A DNA stretch of 32,000 nt from Microcystis aeruginosa NIES-843 (GCF_000010625.1 NC_010296.1:4260001-4292000), one strand, 5' to 3'. Shown: positions 17,992 to 25,552, numbered from the stretch's first letter. A program made the numbers and translations. Notes: generated by a model not told the origin, from the sequence alone.

Positions 17992-18450
17992 ATGATGACT
18001 TTAGCCAAGGTAAAAAATCTTTATGATCAAGATTTTGCTTTGTGGATAGAAGCAACCGTCAAACAATTAAAATCTGGGGATTTATCTCAGGTTGATTTAG
18101 AGAATTTGATCGAGGAGGTGGAGTCTTTGGGGAAAAGTCAACCCAAAGCGGTTGATAATTTTTTAACTCGTTTATTAGAACATTTATTAAAACGTTGTTA
18201 TGTGGTTCTTCCCGATTGTTATTGGGGGTGGGAAATTGAAATTAGAAATTTTCGCAAGGAGTTGAAGAAGGAATTTAAGTATTCTCCTAGTTTAAAAAGG
18301 TTTATGATCGAGATTTTAGAAGAATGTTATCGAGAAGCTTTAGAAGCGGTGAAAGAGGATTATCCGGACTCTAATTTTCCCGATGTTTGTCCCTTTGCTG
18401 AGGATATTGATGGTTTATTAAATCATAAGTTTTGGGAGTATGAAAAATAG
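17992..18450 (+). CDS. DUF29 domain protein
   Basis: Typical DUF29 pattern LYDQDFALWIE...LDLENLIEEVESLGKS...SPSL...ECPF-like ending. The true start is probably the second ATG (17995), by comparison with the paralog. Confidence 0.8.
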   Translation: MMTLAKVKNLYDQDFALWIEATVKQLKSGDLSQVDLENLIEEVESLGKSQPKAVDNFLTRLLEHLLKRCYVVLPDCYWGWEIEIRNFRKELKKEFKYSPSLKRFMIEILEECYREALEAVKEDYPDSNFPDVCPFAEDIDGLLNHKFWEYEK

Positions 18451-18458
18451 TTAAAACT

Positions 18459-19247
18459 CTAATCCTTGGGGGGAATTGCCATCACTTGATTATCATTAAC
18501 CACAATCAATTTACCGCCCAATTTTTCGATATTTTCCTTAGCTAACCTGCGGGTTTCTTCGTCTTGGCTATTTATCCAGACTAACATCCAAGCACCGACT
18601 CTAGGAGCGCGACTATCGGGATTAGTTTCTAAAAATTTTACTGTTCCCCTAGCGGATTTTTCGATAAATTTATTACCGGCAATTTTCGCCCAATCGGCGG
18701 CCATTTGATAGGATTTTTTCGCTGCGGGAATATCACCTAAAAATAATAGTTCATCCACTCCTTTATATAACCAAAGAAAATAGGCATCGGTGACATCAGG
18801 AGTGATTTTTGATAAACCTTTATTCATAATCTCAACGGTTCTTTCCGGTTTACCAGCATTCAGGGAAGAAGCGACAGACATCATCAAATAGGCGCGGACA
18901 AATTTGGGGTCATTTTTGGTGACAATTTCCATAAAATCGGGACTTAAACCGTAACCAGTTTCCCTACGAGCATCCACATCGCCATAGTATTGTATAAACT
19001 GCAACATTGACCAATTGGCTAACATATTGTCAAAGCCAAAGGAAGGTATATTTTTTAATAACTCAACCTGAGCATTTTCTAGGCGAGACTCTTGACGATA
19101 ATTTCTATCTAATAACTTTTCTTTGGTCAAGGTTTTCACCTTTTCCTGTTGCATTTCCACAATAGCTATGATTAGTCCACCGATGACGGCGACTAAACCA
19201 AGAGTTTTAAGTAAGGATAGATTGAGAGATTTTTTTGCACCTACCAT
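18459..19247 (-). CDS. Hypothetical protein with N-terminal membrane anchor
   Basis: 262-aa ORF with one N-terminal TM (LGLVAVIGGLIIAIV) and a helical soluble domain. No motif recognised. Confidence 0.55.
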   Translation of the reverse strand: MVGAKKSLNLSLLKTLGLVAVIGGLIIAIVEMQQEKVKTLTKEKLLDRNYRQESRLENAQVELLKNIPSFGFDNMLANWSMLQFIQYYGDVDARRETGYGLSPDFMEIVTKNDPKFVRAYLMMSVASSLNAGKPERTVEIMNKGLSKITPDVTDAYFLWLYKGVDELLFLGDIPAAKKSYQMAADWAKIAGNKFIEKSARGTVKFLETNPDSRAPRVGAWMLVWINSQDEETRRLAKENIEKLGGKLIVVNDNQVMAIPPKD

Positions 19248-19274
19248 AGCTTTAAATAAAAGTCAATAATCAGT

Positions 19275-19411
19275 GTAGGGTTAATTCATGAATTAACCCT
19301 ACCATCGCGGTTAATTCATGAATTAACCCTACGATGAATTAACCCTACGATGAATTAACCCTACGATGAATTAACCCTACGATGAATTAACCCTACGATG
19401 AATTAACCGAC
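19275..19411. repeat. 28-bp perfect palindrome followed by a half-palindrome and a 16-bp tandem array
   Basis: GTAGGGTTAATTCATGAATTAACCCTAC at 19275-19302. A second partial copy starts at 19309. GATGAATTAACCCTAC occurs 4 times at 19333-19396, plus one degenerate unit. Confidence 0.9.
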
Positions 19412-19477
19412 AAATCACGCCCTTCATAATTATAACCATTTACTTATCAACAAAAATAAAAGATTTTTGGGGTTATT

Positions 19478-19984
19478 TTAATTAATTTTAATGCCATTAA
19501 CACAGCTAAGAACACCGGCGGAATTACTGGTAGAAACATTATCTTCTAAAGGAGTTTCATCCTCGCAAACAATACCAGTATAGGCCCCGGCTGCCGTTTG
19601 TCCAGACGCTCCGGCATAATTTTTAATATCGTCAGCAAATGGAGTCAAAGCATCCAATTCATAGGCGACTCCAACAGGATTGCGAGTTCCTACTTCGCTG
19701 ATATTATAAAATGTTAGGGAAATAGTGGCAGCTTCCAGAGATAGTTCAGATAAAGTAGCAAAAGTCCCTTTTTCATAACGATAACCCTGTTGGGCGCGAT
19801 TGATTAATCCCAGTGCTGCGCGCGCTTCTGCTTGCCTACCTTTGGCGATTTGTCCTAAGAGACTCGGTAAACTGATGGCAGCGAGAACCCCCAATAAAAT
19901 CACCACTACTAACAATTCTATTAGAGTAAAACCCCTCGCTTTTTTTGCCTGTGATTTGATTGCTGAAAAAAGAAGGTATTTCAT
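19478..19984 (-). CDS. Type IV pilin (prepilin with G/FTLIE cleavage-methylation motif)
   Basis: From the ATG at 19984: MKYLLFSAIKSQAKKARG/FTLIELLVVVILLGVLAAISLPSLLGQIAKGRQAEA, with a C-terminal Cys pair (IVCED...LSCVNG). The 86 upstream codons in the track ORF are translated octamer repeats. Confidence 0.8.
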   Translation of the reverse strand: MKYLLFSAIKSQAKKARGFTLIELLVVVILLGVLAAISLPSLLGQIAKGRQAEARAALGLINRAQQGYRYEKGTFATLSELSLEAATISLTFYNISEVGTRNPVGVAYELDALTPFADDIKNYAGASGQTAAGAYTGIVCEDETPLEDNVSTSNSAGVLSCVNGIKIN

Positions 19985-20015
19985 GGTTAGGCCCTGGCAA
20001 TATTGACTATATTTT

Positions 20016-20252
20016 GGGTGTTGGGGTGTTGGGGTGGTCACTGCGTGCGCGTTGCGGGGGGTGTTGGGGTGTTCGGGTGTTCGGGTGTTCGGGTGTTGGG
20101 GTGTTCGGGTGTTGGGGTTTTGGGGTGTTCGGGTGTTGGGGTGTTCGGGTGTTGGGGTTTTAGTTGAAATTCCCCCACTTCCCCACTTCCCCACTTCCCC
20201 ACTTCCCCACTTCCCCACTTCCCCACTTCCCCACTTCCCCACTTCCCCACTT
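20016..20252. repeat. Octamer repeat tracts filling the inter-pilin spacer (GGTGTTSG units, 31-bp unique core, then CCCCACTT x10)
   Basis: CCCCACTT occurs 10 times at 20173-20252. GGTGTT(C/G)G units span about 20016-20160. The core at 20031-20061 is the reverse complement of 705-735. Confidence 0.9.
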
Positions 20253-20369
20253 CCCGAAAAAAATCAAAAGCGCAAGGTTTCCAAGAGAAAATTTCCCTGC
20301 CACCTTCCGCTAGAGTATCAATTGTTGGTTGTTATGCCAGAAAGCTTTTAGGCAATCTGGGAAGAATAT

Positions 20370-20894
20370 CTATCTGACCCGGGTACCAGTAGTGCAGGTA
20401 GCAGCAGTTGTTGCTGCTGCTACTCCAGCAGTAGGATGAGTTGCTTCACAGATGATTGATCTGAAAACACCAGCGGCGTCTTGAGATACCGCAGCAGAGT
20501 AGTCGCGAATATCGTCGTCGAAGGCGCCGATAGCTGAAGCATTAGTTAGAGCAGAAGTGGTACTGGTGGCGGTAGGTCCGGTATAATTATAGTATTGAGG
20601 TTCTATAGATACGGGCAAGTCGCCGGTACTTACACTGCCAGCAGCGGCAGTAAATAGTCCAAAATTTCCCTGTTCTAAGCGGTAAGCCTGTTGAGCGCGG
20701 TTAACGGTACCGAGGTGGGTGCGAGCTTCCGCTTGTCTGCCTTTGGCTATCTGACCGAGGAGGTTGGGGAGAGCGATGGCGGCGAGTACACCGATGATGA
20801 TAACGACAACTAGGAGTTCGATGAGGGTGAAACCTTTGTTACCGTTCTTTTTGTTGAGAGCTTGGATGAGTTTGAATTTGAAGGTGGAGTTCAT
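20370..20894 (-). CDS. Type IV pilin (prepilin), second paralog
   Basis: From the ATG at 20894: MNSTFKFKLIQALNKKNGNKG/FTLIELLVVVIIIGVLAAIALPNLLGQIAKGRQAEA, with a C-terminal Cys pair (IICEA...ATCTTG). Confidence 0.8.
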   Translation of the reverse strand: MNSTFKFKLIQALNKKNGNKGFTLIELLVVVIIIGVLAAIALPNLLGQIAKGRQAEARTHLGTVNRAQQAYRLEQGNFGLFTAAAGSVSTGDLPVSIEPQYYNYTGPTATSTTSALTNASAIGAFDDDIRDYSAAVSQDAAGVFRSIICEATHPTAGVAAATTAATCTTGTRVR

Positions 20895-21021
20895 GGGTAT
20901 ATCCTTTGGTAAGTGTTTTTTGTTCTCTATGAACAACTTACCCACCTCTTTCAGAAAACCTATCACTCTTGGGAAAAATTTTTTTTGGGGTGGTGGGGGA
21001 GGCTGTTTCTAGAAGCCACTT

Positions 21022-21476
21022 CTAGGGATTGGGGAAAAAACCGAAAAGTTTAGCGGCACCTCCCAAGACAGCAACCACCAAAGCTAAGCTAAACGGCTTT
21101 TACTTCGGATCACCGATATAGACTCCAAAAGGGTTATAGCTATTGGATCATGCAGGTTAAGCGCCGTTTAGCTTATCAAAATCCCCCGGTTGGTAAATTC
21201 CTGATAACCAACCCGTACCGTTAATCCCTCGATTTTCTCGTCTAATACTTTAATATCGCCTTTTAACTCTGCTTTGAGTTCGGCCTGTCCGATTTCTACT
21301 TTCGTCAACCGGTCCTCTACCTTGTCAAATCTCTCATCTACCTTGTCAAATCTCTCATTCATCCGCTTTTCAAGGGAGTCGATTTTCTCATCCATCCGTT
21401 TTTCAAGGGAGTCGATTTTACTCTCAATCCTAGTTAGGACAGCTTCTAGGGAATAGGTGACGGTTTCGTTGGACAT
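21022..21476 (-). pseudogene. Array copy A: small coiled-coil tail-anchored protein gene interrupted by a MITE
   Basis: The ORF stops at 21168 inside the insertion. Removing 21087-21173 plus one TA restores ...NRGILI-ALVVAVLGGAAKLFGFFPNP*, identical to the C-terminus of copies C-E. Confidence 0.8.
21087..21173. mobile_element. 87-bp MITE-like insertion with 11-bp perfect terminal inverted repeats and TA duplication
   Basis: AGCTAAACGGC (21087-21097) pairs with GCCGTTTAGCT (21163-21173). TA is at 21085-21086 and 21174-21175. The uninterrupted site in the paralogs reads GATAGCTTTGG on the coding (minus) strand. Confidence 0.8.
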
Positions 21477-21529
21477 TTGCTAAACTCCTAAAGTTATCAA
21501 TAGTTTTCGGGGTGTGAGACTAGAGAATT

Positions 21530-21859
21530 TTAGGGATTGTTACCGAGGAAAAGAATTCTGATAGCAACGGTGATAATTGCACCGATAGCGGCACTCATGG
21601 CACCGATAAGGATAGGGACAATCAGACCTCGAAAACCCTGTAGGTCAGAAATAGCCTTAACTAGAGTGTATTGCTCATTTTCTACTTTTTCTAGTCTTTT
21701 ATCCATCCCTTCGACTTTCTCAGTTAGTTTAGCTTGTCCTACCTTTAAATCATTTACATCTCTTTGCAAGGTGTCCATTTTCTGATTGACTTCCTTGATG
21801 CTGTCTTTAATTTCCTTAAGGACCGATTCTAGGGAATAAGTTACAGTTTCGTTAGACAT
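21530..21859 (-). CDS. Array copy B: small coiled-coil protein with C-terminal TM anchor (divergent paralog)
   Basis: It shares the N-terminus MSNETVTYSLESVLKEIKDSIKEVNQK with copies C-E, then diverges. The coiled-coil region ends in the TM LIVPILIGAMSAAIGAIITVAI and ...GNNP. Confidence 0.7.
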   Translation of the reverse strand: MSNETVTYSLESVLKEIKDSIKEVNQKMDTLQRDVNDLKVGQAKLTEKVEGMDKRLEKVENEQYTLVKAISDLQGFRGLIVPILIGAMSAAIGAIITVAIRILFLGNNP

Positions 21860-21910
21860 TTTGCTATACTCCTATAGATTTTCGGGTTTTTGATAGCCAT
21901 TTATTATAAG
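21860..21910 (-). promoter_or_regulatory. Putative RBS and -10 box of array copy B
   Basis: On the minus strand, AGGAG (21869-21873) lies 9 nt before the ATG and TATAAT is at 21903-21908. Confidence 0.35.
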
Positions 21911-21943
21911 CCTAAGGGCTGTAACCGTTTCTAGGAGACACTT

Positions 21944-22375
21944 TTAGGGATTGGGGAAAAAACCAAAAAGTTTAGCGGCACCTCCCAAGACAGCAACCAC
22001 CAAAGCTATCAGAATCCCCCGGTTGGTGAACTCCTGATAACCAACCCGTACCGTTAATCCCTCGATTTTCTCGTCTAATACTTTAATATCGCCTTTTAAC
22101 TCTCCCTTAAGTTCGGCCTGTCCGATTTCTACTTTGGTTAGCCGGTCTTCTACCTTGTCAAATCTCTCATCCATCCGTGTTTCAAGGGAGTCGATTTTCT
22201 GATTGACATCTTTTTGCAGGGTATCGATTTTCTGATTGACATCTTTTTGCAGGGTATCGATTTTCTGATTGACATCTTTTTGCAGGGTATCGATTTTCTG
22301 GTTGACTTCTTTGATGCTGTCTTTAATTTCCTTAAGGACTGATTCTAGGGAATAGGTGACAGTTTCGTTAGACAT
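21944..22375 (-). CDS. Array copy C: small coiled-coil tail-anchored protein, 143 aa, four 11-aa repeats
   Basis: NQKIDTLQKDV x3 plus NQKIDSLETRM, then a coiled coil and the C-terminal TM ILIALVVAVLGGAAKLFGFF-PNP. Confidence 0.75.
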   Translation of the reverse strand: MSNETVTYSLESVLKEIKDSIKEVNQKIDTLQKDVNQKIDTLQKDVNQKIDTLQKDVNQKIDSLETRMDERFDKVEDRLTKVEIGQAELKGELKGDIKVLDEKIEGLTVRVGYQEFTNRGILIALVVAVLGGAAKLFGFFPNP

Positions 22376-22428
22376 TTTGCTATACTCCTATGGGGTTTTC
22401 GGGTTTTTGAGCGGCCATTTATTATGAT
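22376..22428 (-). promoter_or_regulatory. Putative RBS and -10 box of array copy C
   Basis: On the minus strand, AGGAG is at 22385-22389 and CATAAT at 22421-22426. Confidence 0.3.
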
Positions 22429-22461
22429 CATAAGGCCTCTAGCCTTGCCTAGGAGCCACTT

Positions 22462-22893
22462 TTAGGGATTAGGAAAAAAACCAAAAAGTTTAGCAGCACC
22501 TCCCAAGACAGCAACCACCAAAGCTATCAGAATCCCCCGGTTGGTAAATTCCTGATAACCAACCCGTACCGTTAATCCCTCGATTTTCTCGTCTAATACT
22601 TTAATATTGCCTTTTAACTCTCCCTTAAGTTCGGCCTGTCCGATTTCTACTTTGGTGAGCCGGTCTTCTACCTTGTCAAATCTCTCATCCATCCGTGTTT
22701 CAAGGGAGTCGATTTTCTGATTGACATCTTTTTGCAGGGTATCGATTTTCTGATTGACATCTTTTTGCAGGGTATCGATTTTCTGATTGACATCTTTTTG
22801 CAGGGTATCGATTTTCTGGTTGACTTCTTTGATGCTGTCTTTAATTTCCTTAAGGACTGATTCTAGGGAATAGGTGACAGTTTCGTTAGACAT
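22462..22893 (-). CDS. Array copy D: as copy C, one amino-acid difference (D to N)
   Basis: The 143-aa product is identical to copy C except GDIKVL becomes GNIKVL. The cassette is offset 518 bp from C. Confidence 0.75.
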   Translation of the reverse strand: MSNETVTYSLESVLKEIKDSIKEVNQKIDTLQKDVNQKIDTLQKDVNQKIDTLQKDVNQKIDSLETRMDERFDKVEDRLTKVEIGQAELKGELKGNIKVLDEKIEGLTVRVGYQEFTNRGILIALVVAVLGGAAKLFGFFPNP

Positions 22894-22943
22894 TTGCTAG
22901 ACTCCTATAGATTTTTGAGTTTTTGATAGCCATTTCTTATAAT
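22894..22943 (-). promoter_or_regulatory. Putative RBS and -10 box of array copy D
   Basis: On the minus strand, AGGAG is at 22902-22906 and TATAAG at 22936-22941. Confidence 0.3.
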
Positions 22944-22976
22944 CCTAAGGCAAGTAATCGTTTCTAGGAGCCACTT

Positions 22977-23375
22977 TTAGGGATTAGGGAAAAAACCAAA
23001 AAGTTTAGCGGCACCTCCCAAGACAGCAACCACCAAAGCTATCAGAATCCCCCGGTTGGTGAACTCCTGATAACCAACCCGTACCGTTAATCCCTCGATT
23101 TTCTCGTCTAATACTTTAATATCTCCTTTTAACTCTCCCTTAAGTTCGGCCTGTCCGATTTCTACTTTGGTGAGCCGGTCTTCTACCTTGTCAAATCTCT
23201 CATCCATCCGTGTTTCAAGGGAGTCGATTTTTTGATTGACATCTTTTTGCAAGGTATCGATTTTCTGATTGACATCTTTTTGCAGGGTATCGATTTTCTG
23301 GTTGACTTCTTTGATGCTGTCTTTAATTTCCTTAAGGACTGATTCTAGGGAATAGGTGACAGTTTCGTTAGACAT
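22977..23375 (-). CDS. Array copy E: as copy C but lacking one 11-aa (33-bp) repeat, 132 aa
   Basis: The sequence equals copy C minus one NQKIDTLQKDV unit. Confidence 0.75.
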   Translation of the reverse strand: MSNETVTYSLESVLKEIKDSIKEVNQKIDTLQKDVNQKIDTLQKDVNQKIDSLETRMDERFDKVEDRLTKVEIGQAELKGELKGDIKVLDEKIEGLTVRVGYQEFTNRGILIALVVAVLGGAAKLFGFFPNP

Positions 23376-23426
23376 TTGCTAGACTCCTATAGATTTTCGG
23401 GTTTTTGAGCGGCCATTTATTATGAT
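23376..23426 (-). promoter_or_regulatory. Putative RBS and -10 box of array copy E
   Basis: On the minus strand, AGGAG is at 23384-23388 and CATAAT at 23419-23424. Confidence 0.3.
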
Positions 23427-23459
23427 CATAAGGCCTCTAGCCTTGCCTAGGAGCCACTT

Positions 23460-23601
23460 TTAGGGATTGGGAAAAAAACCAAAAAGTTTAGCAGCACCTC
23501 CCAAGACAGCGACCACCAAAGCTATCAGAATCCCCCGGTTGGTAAATTCCTGATAACCAACCCGTACCGTTAATCCCTCGACTTTCTCATCTAATACTTT
23601 A
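23460..23601 (-). pseudogene. Array copy F: 3' remnant only (about 46 C-terminal codons)
   Basis: Encodes ...LDEKVEGLTVRVGYQEFTNRGILIALVVAVLGGAAKLFGFFPNP*. Similarity to copies C-E stops at 23601. No start codon or 5' half is present. Confidence 0.8.
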
Positions 23602-24423
23602 ATCTTCTTGACAGGCTTCTTGGACAAGATGGACAACAATTGTCGGCTCGGCGGCGGAAGCCAGTAACATGGTAATAAGACTGCCTATTTCACCCTCTGC
23701 TCCCACCGCTAGGAGCTCCCCAACAAGTGCAGAGGTCAGAGGACATTGCTGCTCAACAAGAGCGATGGGAAGTTTCTCCCAAGGGTCAATTCCTTGGCGT
23801 TCTGCTGCCAGAATTCTCTTGAAGACCTCTTGAAGAGTCGTCTGGTCCTGAAGCGAAGGCATGAGTCGTACTACGGCGAGAGCGCAAACAGGTTTTTTGA
23901 GTGCCTCTAGCAACGCATAAGCAGCGTTGAAGGAACGAGTCTGGTGGTTTAATTCTCTTAAGGCTTCTATCATCAGCGTTCTAAACAACTCTTCATCACA
24001 TCGTTGAGCGACCAGTTCTTGGACCGCCCGCGCCCGTGCTAGGTTTTTTGAGGTGAACCAATCAGGGCATGAAGCCAGAAGCACTCGTACATCCTCAAAA
24101 TCAAGGATTCGTGGCGGCTTGAAGTAAGCGAGCAGCTCAGTTCGCAACAGTTCATCAGTAGCCGATGAGTAAACCCGCTCTCGCACAATCTCGACCAGTT
24201 GTTGTTGAATGCCCTCATCAGCGATCGCTAGAAGCTGAAGGTAGGCTTTGAGAGCAGCCGAATAATCGCCCTGTTTAAGCTGGTGCAAGAGGCACTCATA
24301 GCGATCTTGTTCTTTCTCGACCGGGTTTCCACTGCCCAAGGCATTGAGGTACACTTCCCTGTCCGAGTCAGTTTCAGCAAATCCCGCCAGCCGCTCAAAA
24401 ATTCTTCGAGAAAAACTTTCCAT
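23599..24423 (-). CDS. Hypothetical all-helical protein, no recognisable family
   Basis: 274-aa ORF. G+C in four hand-counted 60-nt lines was 33, 23, 30 and 31 (about 49% on average), above the neighbouring array. Its TAA stop (23599-23601) lies within the array-F remnant. Confidence 0.55.
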   Translation of the reverse strand: MESFSRRIFERLAGFAETDSDREVYLNALGSGNPVEKEQDRYECLLHQLKQGDYSAALKAYLQLLAIADEGIQQQLVEIVRERVYSSATDELLRTELLAYFKPPRILDFEDVRVLLASCPDWFTSKNLARARAVQELVAQRCDEELFRTLMIEALRELNHQTRSFNAAYALLEALKKPVCALAVVRLMPSLQDQTTLQEVFKRILAAERQGIDPWEKLPIALVEQQCPLTSALVGELLAVGAEGEIGSLITMLLASAAEPTIVVHLVQEACQED

Positions 24424-24461
24424 GATTAACTCTTTTTGCGCTCGTCTTCAAACCTCAAACT

Positions 24462-24495
24462 CAGTGAACTGATAACTGATCACTGATCACTGATT
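24462..24495. repeat. Heptamer tandem repeat (CTGATNA type, STRR-like)
   Basis: Read directly: cagtgaactgataactgatcactgatcactgatta. Confidence 0.85.
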
Positions 24496-25552
24496 AAAGT
24501 ACCATTTCTCTGGTGGCTTCTGCATCTATGGGTTTAATCAGATACAATCGCAGGAGATCCCCGACCATACCTAACTGTAAGGGTAACTTACCCATTGTTT
24601 TTAGCCATTGGGGAACGCTACTTTCATCGATCGCTTTTAATTGTAAATTACGTTCGGCACAACGGTTTAAACGGGGGAAAAATTGGGGATGGTCCACATT
24701 TAAAATAGTTGGAAAAGCGCGAGCGGAGGTATTATTAGTCTGACGAATTACCTCTTGATCAAAAGCGATCGCATCCATTCCTAAAGCATCATAAAAGTCT
24801 GAGCGTTCCCGTACAGTTAAACTATGGGTAGCAAAGACGGAAAGCAGGAAAAAACGGCTCCATAATCTCGATCGCCAATTATTCCACAATTGCGGTTTAG
24901 CGCGCAGTAAGGTTTTAAAGATATCTCCGTGGCGATTTTCGTCTTGACACCAACTCTCGAAGTAATTAAAAAGAGGATTAAATTTATACTGGGGATGTTC
25001 TTCTAAATAACGATAAATGAGAATATACCGCCAATAACCGATTTTTTCGGAGAGATAGACCGTATATAACACCCATTCAAGGGGGAAAAAGGTGTAGGTA
25101 CGGGTTTTAGTAATTTTGGCTAAATCGAGGGAAATATTAAAGTCAGCCATGGCTTTATTGAGAAATCCTGCATGGCGCGCCTCATATCTAACCATAAGAT
25201 GAAATATCTCCCCTAACAAGGGATTACGGCTTTTTAGTTGTCGTGACAGTTCCTTAAATAACAAAAAGCCAGAAAATTCGGAGATACAGGAGCGTTCTAG
25301 GTAATCTATAAAGGCATTTCTCGTTTTTTCATCGAGATTATCTTGATAGTTCTCAAATTCTTGCTGACGTTCAAAGTGATGCCGGTTGTAATCGGTCCGC
25401 ATCTCCTCTAACATCGCTTTGATTTCGGTTTCTTGCAGAGAAAGGTCAAAATTAGCGGCAGCCTCAAAATCGGTGGTATAGAAACGAGGAGTGAGGATAG
25501 TTTCGCGCAGAACAGCTTTTTTCTGGGAGGGGGGTTCAACGGTAGTGACCAT
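24494..25552 (-). CDS. acsF: Mg-protoporphyrin IX monomethyl ester (oxidative) cyclase, AcsF family
   Basis: Hallmark N-terminus ETILTPRFYTTDF, di-iron carboxylate-type blocks (EFSGFLLFKELS, EARHAGF, DENRHGD). 352 aa. Confidence 0.9.
   Translation of the reverse strand: MVTTVEPPSQKKAVLRETILTPRFYTTDFEAAANFDLSLQETEIKAMLEEMRTDYNRHHFERQQEFENYQDNLDEKTRNAFIDYLERSCISEFSGFLLFKELSRQLKSRNPLLGEIFHLMVRYEARHAGFLNKAMADFNISLDLAKITKTRTYTFFPLEWVLYTVYLSEKIGYWRYILIYRYLEEHPQYKFNPLFNYFESWCQDENRHGDIFKTLLRAKPQLWNNWRSRLWSRFFLLSVFATHSLTVRERSDFYDALGMDAIAFDQEVIRQTNNTSARAFPTILNVDHPQFFPRLNRCAERNLQLKAIDESSVPQWLKTMGKLPLQLGMVGDLLRLYLIKPIDAEATREMVL

Follow-up and report, generated by a model that had tools for sequence, protein, structure and literature searches.

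A tandem array of paralogous genes for predicted membrane-anchored coiled-coil stalk proteins in Microcystis aeruginosa NIES-843

The window analysed here is a stretch of 32,000 nucleotides from Microcystis aeruginosa NIES-843 (NC_010296.1:4260001-4292000), and its object of interest is an array of small paralogous genes on the minus strand, at positions 21022-23601 counted from the first letter of the window. A first-pass annotation made from the sequence had described six head-to-tail cassettes, of which one (A) is disrupted by a miniature inverted-repeat transposable element (MITE) and another (F) is a 3' remnant. The list of open reading frames (ORFs), the sequence itself and an empty insertion site found elsewhere bear this out: the array is made up of five head-to-tail gene copies (A-E) and the remnant F. 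The predicted product of each gene is a single long helix composed of a stalk of variable length and a C-terminal membrane anchor and, according to the searches reported below, these proteins make up an uncharacterised, cyanobacteria-wide family that has no curated entry. As judged from the comparison of paralogues and strains, the array gains and loses whole cassettes and in-frame repeat units and shuffles N- and C-terminal modules by unequal recombination. The role of the proteins is a more delicate matter. The reading favored here, to which we give about an even chance, is that the recombining paralogues encode tail-anchored, oligomerising stalks in the cytoplasm, which would hold a conserved tip some 10-16 nm off the membrane.

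Layout of the array

The five copies share the N-terminus MSNETVTYSLE(S/A)VL. Copies A, C, D and E and remnant F end in ...LGGAAKLFGFFPNP and copy B in ...ILFLGNNP. Copy B belongs to a second subtype (type 2), which differs in its juxtamembrane segment and has a longer transmembrane helix, and the spacers ahead of the genes come in two alleles, called alpha and beta. The components of the array are the following:

21022-21086, minus strand: displaced 3' end of copy A, coding for ...ALVVAVLGGAAKLFGFFPNP and then a stop codon
21087-21173, no strand assigned: MITE of 87 bp with 11-bp terminal inverted repeats (AGCTAAACGGC...GCCGTTTAGCT) and a TA duplication at 21085-21086 and 21174-21175
21174-21476, minus strand: 5' part of copy A, with a TRIESKIDSLEKR-type N-terminus; AGGAG at 21485-21489
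21530-21859, minus strand: copy B, 109 residues, type 2; AGGAG at 21869-21873, TATAAT at 21903-21908, beta-type spacer ahead
21944-22375, minus strand: copy C, 143 residues, type 1; AGGAG at 22385-22389, alpha-type spacer ahead (22376-22461)
22462-22893, minus strand: copy D, 143 residues, type 1; AGGAG at 22902-22906, TATAAG at 22936-22941, beta-type spacer ahead (22894-22976)
22977-23375, minus strand: copy E, 132 residues, type 1; AGGAG at 23384-23388, alpha-type spacer ahead (23376-23459)
23460-23601, minus strand: remnant F, coding for ...KVLDEKVEGLTVRVGYQEFTNRGILIALVVAVLGGAAKLFGFFPNP, without start codon and without stalk

Tandem Repeats Finder detects a 33-bp repeat in 3.7 copies in both C and D and in 2.9 copies in E, while copy A holds two units of a 33-bp repeat and two of a 21-bp repeat. 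In the corresponding proteins, the 11-residue unit VNQKIDTLQKD appears twice in perfect and once in degenerate form in the stalk of E, and the 11-residue unit of D is repeated three times, each time perfectly. Copies C, D and E are 95-98% identical to one another (98.3% for C and E at the DNA level), A is about 81% identical to these three, and remnant F is 94-97% identical to the corresponding stretch of A, C, D and E. The first 27 residues of copy B are those of C, D and E; its C-terminal half is divergent (GMDKRLEKVENEQ...SDLQGFRGLI, a longer transmembrane segment and GNNP), and its nucleotide likeness to the other cassettes is limited to the first ~100 nt. The cassette period of 515-518 bp that had been attributed to the whole array is valid for D (515 bp) and C (518 bp) but not for E (483 bp), B (414 bp) or A, whose 508 bp shrink to 419 bp when the MITE and its TA duplication are discounted.

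The expression signals that the first-pass annotation had reported for B-E, an AGGAG and a -10-like box, are indeed present. The AGGAG is located 8-9 nt ahead of the ATG in all five complete copies, A included, and the -10-like hexamers precede the start codon by 42-51 nt: TATAAT in B, TATAAG in D and CATAAT/TATGAT in C and E. In a consensus scan, none of the spacers contained a complete minus-strand promoter (-35 and -10) and no terminator was found between cassettes, so the independent expression of the cassettes is plausible at most. The spacer alleles alternate, alpha ahead of E and C and beta ahead of D and B, and the array thus looks like a duplicated two-cassette unit. The alpha spacers also contain a perfect 12-bp palindrome, TTATGATCATAA, at 22422-22433 (before C) and 23420-23431 (before E); it is flanked by GGCC...GGCC, overlaps the -10-like hexamers and does not appear in the beta spacers before B and D. 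Acting as an operator or as a hairpin, this palindrome might cause every other cassette to be regulated differently. The Rfam scan of positions 18000-25000 returned no credible RNA family.

The insert in copy A shows all the hallmarks of a MITE, since it is short, non-coding, bounded by inverted repeats and a target-site duplication, and multicopy in unrelated contexts. It breaks the reading frame of copy A, which results in a truncated ORF of 102 residues ending at 21168; the empty site in other Microcystis strains holds an intact copy A of 103 residues. The element is very abundant in Microcystis-containing metagenomes (at least 119 contigs), and at least 121 further copies were found in metagenomes, in 107 flank contexts, every one of them exactly 87 bp long with TA/TA flanks. 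A TA target-site duplication would suggest mobilisation by a transposase of the IS630/Tc1-mariner type.

Architecture, variation and distribution of the proteins

The proteins have four parts: an N-terminal tip, a repeat stalk, a membrane-proximal motif and a C-terminal hydrophobic helix. The tip, T(V/L)TY(S/T)LE-x-(V/I)L, is kept across the family. The stalk is made of in-frame repeats of 11, 7 and ~18 residues; its hydrophobic period of ~3.6 corresponds to a mixture of heptads and hendecads, and 43% of its residues are charged. The membrane-proximal block reads G-x-x-K-R-x-D-N-Q-E-F-x-N-R-G and includes four positions, R99, E104, F105 and R108, that are invariant among 73 diverse members. 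It is followed by a hydrophobic helix of ~20 residues (LGGAAKLFG) and just 2-5 further residues, of which NP are often the last. In ~100 relatives, the best 19-residue hydrophobic window is found at the extreme C-terminus (Kyte-Doolittle ~2.0-2.6, typically with 4 residues beyond), and the N-terminus is hydrophilic and devoid of signal peptide. At the sequence level, the proteins accordingly resemble the tail-anchored class, with no signal sequence, a single C-terminal transmembrane segment and a very short tail. The AlphaFold2 model of the monomer, based on a 73-sequence alignment, is one unbroken helix from residue 10 to residue 125 (mean predicted local distance difference test score of 92). 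Together with the hydrophobic window, this agrees, as far as prediction goes, with the initial description of small coiled-coil proteins with a C-terminal membrane anchor.

The first-pass annotation had remarked that the repeat number varies between paralogues, and it also does so between strains: the type-1 proteins of Microcystis form a ladder of lengths from 110 to 153 residues, in which the 11-mer is present 0-4 times, the 7-mer 0-4 times and a larger module 0-2 times. The N- and C-terminal module types are found in all four combinations among the paralogues, which argues for recombination between copies. The number of cassettes at this Microcystis locus ranges from 3 to 8 across strains. 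Microcystis sp. BLCC-F210 (NZ_CP169647.1, ~1.979-2.004 Mb; L006 and L009, where numbers with the prefix L are our own locus handles) has arrays of 8 and 4 copies, M. ichthyoblabe has one of 5, and metagenomic Microcystis contigs carry 3-4 copies or more. A second Microcystis locus holds 3 copies, Crocosphaera and Cyanothece have 2-4, and up to 12 family copies occur per genome. Homologues elsewhere are thus often arrayed and variable in repeat number, rather than single-copy and invariant. The two BLCC-F210 arrays are in opposite orientation, with the fetched regions less than 1 kb apart and 12 family genes in ~25 kb, a layout that suggests the inversion or duplication of a whole array.

Several observations indicate that these ORFs are real genes. 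The length variants are all in frame, without exception among the indels, and both termini are conserved across cyanobacterial orders, from Microcystis to Nostocales and Pseudanabaena. Among intact type-1 copies of Microcystis, chosen by their C-terminal sequence, the proportion of synonymous differences (pS) is 0.18 and that of non-synonymous differences (pN) is 0.02 over the final 45 codons, where the protein is nearly invariant. A Shine-Dalgarno-like motif precedes 59 of the 130 family genes, compared with 15% of background ORFs.

The family is large. At E<=1e-3, copy E has 1094 relatives and copy B 565, and an exhaustive search of 1.84 billion representatives delimits 322 clusters at 50% identity, nearly all of them of 56-211 residues. 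Among GTDB species genomes, the carriers include Microcystis, Crocosphaera, Cyanothece, Pleurocapsa, Xenococcus, Pannus and Snowella, as well as Dolichospermum, Aphanizomenon, Anabaena, Cuspidothrix, Pseudanabaena and Leptolyngbyaceae; Woronichinia also carries the family. A few matches come from bins labelled as non-cyanobacterial, mostly on short contigs, and are probably mis-binned. Databases list these proteins under names that are incorrect or carry no information ("DUF4164 family protein", "shikimate dehydrogenase", "phosphomannomutase", "transketolase", "hemolytic enterotoxin"). Type-2 members, the kind of copy B, are widely called "shikimate dehydrogenase" in NCBI and "phosphomannomutase" in UniRef; since their sequences give no support to those enzyme names, the mistake seems to have spread from one database to another.

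Proposed role and alternative explanations

In the favored reading, the proteins would be inserted into the membrane post-translationally, as tail-anchored proteins, and their stalk would remain in the cytoplasm, because a signal peptide is missing and the transmembrane helix is followed by hardly any residues. The stalk and the transmembrane helix, with its small residues, would probably mediate homo- or hetero-oligomerisation. With a rise of 1.5 Å per residue, the length of the cytoplasmic part would be ~10-16 nm in the different paralogues, and the conserved tip would stand that far from the thylakoid or plasma membrane, on its cytoplasmic side. Such a geometry would suit a spacer, a tether or a scaffold, and the tandem copies would supply both dosage and a mixture of stalk lengths. 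The same topology does not favor the first-pass suggestion of a surface or envelope variation module, since the absence of signal peptide and the 2-5 residues after the transmembrane segment imply that the variable part should face the cytoplasm.

Some points weigh against this reading. Tail-anchoring and the cytoplasmic position of the stalk are deduced from sequence alone, and a conserved Lys within the hydrophobic segment means that the positive-inside rule leaves the orientation unsettled. The AlphaFold2 model is that of a single chain, and the oligomers are putative. The evidence for purifying selection depends on the selection of the copies by their C-terminal sequence, as a looser choice raises pN/pS to 0.44 via truncated or misregistered copies. 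"Spacer or tether" is, moreover, a generic role, and a search of the literature found nothing on this family, including the expression, localisation or topology of any member. A more specific version of the spacer reading is that of a cyanobacteria-specific "molecular ruler", in which oligomeric stalks in the thylakoid or plasma membrane would hold the tip, as a docking peptide, ~10-16 nm away for a partner such as a second membrane or a large complex like NDH-1, and recombining arrays of paralogues that differ in stalk length would allow populations to tune that distance; we regard this version as unlikely.

Equally unlikely is the idea that the proteins are XhlA-like and, as holins or together with them, make the membrane permeable, leading to lysis, to the release of vesicles or to programmed cell death. 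Scans of Pfam, NCBIfam and PHROGs with the window copies and 73 relatives gave no match above a curated threshold except that of NPV_P10 (PF05531, threshold 29.8 bits) with copy B (34.5 bits; C 28.9, E 28.0, A 17.1). This match covers the coiled coil alone, and we read it as a compositional match to a coiled-coil model and not as membership of baculovirus P10. A sequence-profile search of the PDB gave weak matches, mostly to trimeric coiled coils of viral proteins and adhesins (best E=5e-4), and a Foldseek search of the single-helix model against the PDB gave none. The library searches thus failed to link the proteins confidently to any family whose function is known, in line with the first-pass annotation, which had left the family unplaced. 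It had also drawn a parallel with XhlA and with the Bdr proteins of Borrelia; for both, the parallel is sound as architecture but not as membership, since the curated thresholds are missed.

The likeness to XhlA (PF10779) is one of architecture. Both are small proteins without signal peptide, and in both the coiled coil continues directly as a Gly-rich transmembrane helix at the C-terminus; they also share a Lys close to the end, a tail of few residues and a polar, aromatic and Arg-containing motif at the membrane boundary (NTTWILR in XhlA, NQEFxNR in this family); phage J5a XpaF1 has the shared architecture. The Pfam model gives weak matches, with E-values below 1e-3, for 15 of the 73 relatives (4.6e-7 for the best), the whole profile of PHROG 937, "hemolysin", is aligned with copy B at 9e-6, and hhalign aligns the family with XhlA with a probability of 71% (score 31.9) over 66 columns that take in the transmembrane helix. 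XhlA, a membrane protein, is predicted to work synergistically with the holin XhlB, and the production of membrane vesicles needed xhlA, xhlB and xlyA, all three (PMC5589764). Nevertheless, the window copies score 18-26 bits on XhlA (C 18.3, B 18.4, A 26.3), below the threshold of 34.7, while the positive control XpaF1 reaches 48.6. Full column shuffles lower the hhalign score to 13.9 +/- 3.1, but shuffles of heptad blocks or of transmembrane columns give 25-26 +/- 3-4 with maxima of 33-34. As these shuffles, which keep periodicity or composition, attain the real score, homology to XhlA is not demonstrable.

The genomic context points in the same direction. XhlA is found in phage lysis cassettes (in Bacillus phages, its genes adjoin a holin, and an amidase too in 3 of 6), whereas the present family is chromosomal and none of ~80 family loci has a holin or endolysin neighbour. 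The conserved tip, the polymorphic repeats and the tandem arrays are proper to this family, and it would be odd for a lysis factor to sit in core positions of the chromosome with as many as 12 copies in one genome. No intact family gene was found in IMG/VR or in 50,697 GenBank phage records. The sole IMG/VR match is a 17-codon piece of the C-terminal anchor with 88% identity (L093, 8001-8051, IMGVR_UViG_3300049043_000107) that stands beside host-like genes; the contig is probably misclassified or of host origin, and the fragment a remnant. No plasmid match was found for the region, and the PADLOC defence models gave no significant match, with only coiled-coil segments of ZorA, LmuB and Leo matching at 13-24 bits. 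The phage-interaction module that had been proposed for the array therefore receives no backing from these searches.

A third possibility, which gives the tether reading a specific form, is that the proteins are thylakoid factors associated with NDH-1, their stalk reaching the peripheral arm of the complex or organising NDH-1 in the membrane. Family genes adjoin genes of NDH-1 subunits (confirmed with NCBIfam equivalogs) in three arrangements: downstream of ndhH at 10 loci of Crocosphaera, Cyanothece and related unicellular cyanobacteria (within L020-L065; gaps of 94-281 bp, with kaiB and kaiC nearby), downstream of ndhD at the second Microcystis locus (L002-L005, 7597-8650) and divergent from ndhF1 in a metagenome-assembled genome of Microcystaceae (L011). 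By a rough estimate, ~0.5 such adjacencies would be expected by chance. Yet this estimate is an informal one made after the fact, the synteny inherited within each genus leaves few independent observations, and most loci, this window included, have no NDH-1 neighbour. The adjacency is a lead and not a finding, and we consider this explanation quite improbable. Two other sets of neighbours were discarded: kaiB, kaiC and ndhH as generally conserved neighbours, which reflect a synteny specific to the Crocosphaera clade, and the ABC ATPases near 13 loci, which belong to unrelated subtypes (MacB-, GlnQ-, DrrA- and LivF-like) and are attributed to chance. The clustering of all neighbouring ORFs revealed no partner gene conserved across genera. 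The first-pass annotation was right in seeing no adjacent enzymatic partner, but its notion of a "system" was overstated: this is a stand-alone gene family without a conserved partner.

It could also be argued that the array is an accessory or variation module of a type IV pilus or of the cell surface, co-expressed with the two pilin-like genes that lie downstream of it:

20370-20894, minus strand: type IV pilin-like gene 1, likely start MNSTFKFK at 20894; N_methyl 36.9 bits, Pilin_GH 68.4 bits
19478-19984, minus strand: type IV pilin-like gene 2, likely start MKYLLFS at 19984

These genes begin ~130 bp downstream of the array, on the same strand and with no terminator-like site in between, and the synteny is held in other Microcystis genomes (L006, L008, L010, L083-L088). 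The link to pilins that had been pointed out is hence real as an adjacency at this locus. However, the pilin flanks are confined to this one syntenic locus, with no pilin neighbours at the second Microcystis locus or at more than 60 loci in other genera. The proteins have neither a signal peptide nor a prepilin motif and, in the predicted topology, the variable stalk would be cytoplasmic and not on the surface. A pilus-related role appears very unlikely for these reasons, and we take the pilin-like genes as genomic surroundings rather than as partners of the family.

True homology to the Bdr proteins, the KID-repeat family of Borrelia, is more doubtful still and is largely refuted. The resemblance is one of organisation: both are multicopy paralogues with a variable number of 11-residue repeats of KID type (K-I-D) and a C-terminal hydrophobic anchor, both give the same weak coiled-coil matches in Pfam, and Bdr proteins are anchored in the inner membrane and have no known function. 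The best window copy on the KID repeat (PF02524), A, nevertheless scores 18.5 bits, below the threshold of 20.8, when the Bdr control from B31 cp32-1 scores 70.6. The hhalign probability of 67% concerns 27 coiled-coil columns alone and leaves out the N-terminal domain and the anchor. Bdr proteins (~200 residues) have their own N-terminal domain, lack the tip and the juxtamembrane motif, and are encoded on cp32 and linear plasmids, in contrast to the ~100-150 residues and the chromosomal arrays of this family. Two further families were compared. The CCDC90/MCUR1-like proteins (PF07798, formerly DUF1640) have a head domain, a trimeric coiled-coil stalk and a C-terminal transmembrane helix. The stalk leading into a C-terminal transmembrane helix is common to both, but the present proteins have a tip of ~10 residues instead of a globular head, and the matches are not significant (weak in 5 of 73 members; E=0.16 for CCDC90B in the PDB profile search); that family is not known for repeat polymorphism or arrays. 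DUF4164 (PF13747), the name used by NCBI for type-1 members, is likewise a short coiled-coil protein, but its threshold of 27.2 bits is not reached (C 20.3, A 17.0), and the label is unsupported as membership and functionally uninformative. Bdr, XhlA and the CCDC90-like proteins are, by these comparisons, best seen as architectural analogues and not as parent families.

Finally, the view that the array is non-functional repetitive DNA whose ORFs are not genes can draw on the copy broken by the MITE and on the remnant, but it is hardly credible given that the frame, both termini and the invariant residues are kept from Microcystis to Nostocales and Pseudanabaena, that every indel is in frame, that synonymous change greatly exceeds non-synonymous change in intact copies and that strong Shine-Dalgarno motifs are present.

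Borders of the array and significance of the family

On its upstream side, the array is bordered by one gene for which no family match was found:

23599-24423, minus strand: gene of 274 residues, a conserved left border in Microcystis strains

Its stop codon overlaps the first bases of the cassette homology of F (...GAAGATTAAAGTATTAGATGAG). The strains at L083 and L085 have the same length of this gene together with the remnant ORF, which suggests that the border of the array is old and fixed and that its interior varies.

The region of the pilin-like genes has repeats of its own. Two octamer arrays stand back to back between the two genes, at 20058-20158 and 20173-20255, consisting respectively of (G/C)GGGTGTT in 12.6 copies and CCCCACTT in 10.4 copies; the first is telomere-repeat-like and prone to form G-quadruplexes. 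The octamers inflate the listed ORF at 19478-20242, which thereby gains an extra N-terminal "GKWGSGEV" repeat. Together, the two arrays could be a length-variable regulatory spacer upstream of pilin-like gene 2. In the gap 3' of this gene, at 19270-19408, a 16-bp tandem repeat (ATGAATTAACCCTACG, 5.7 copies) comes after a 29-nt inverted repeat and may be a terminator, a MITE or an element akin to highly iterated palindromes (HIP-like).

The combination of an array with internal repeats makes this a highly polymorphic locus, which could serve as a strain marker for Microcystis in long-read data. Many of the contigs with family genes measure just 0.5-3 kb, which is consistent with assemblies breaking at the array, likely an assembly hazard. 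The family is widespread in bloom-forming and nitrogen-fixing cyanobacteria, among them Microcystis, Dolichospermum, Aphanizomenon, Woronichinia and Crocosphaera, and its design, in which conserved ends enclose a single-helix stalk of polymorphic length, is rare in bacteria. If it is true that the length of the stalk sets a distance at the photosynthetic or plasma membrane, these proteins would offer a handle on the organisation of cyanobacterial membranes.

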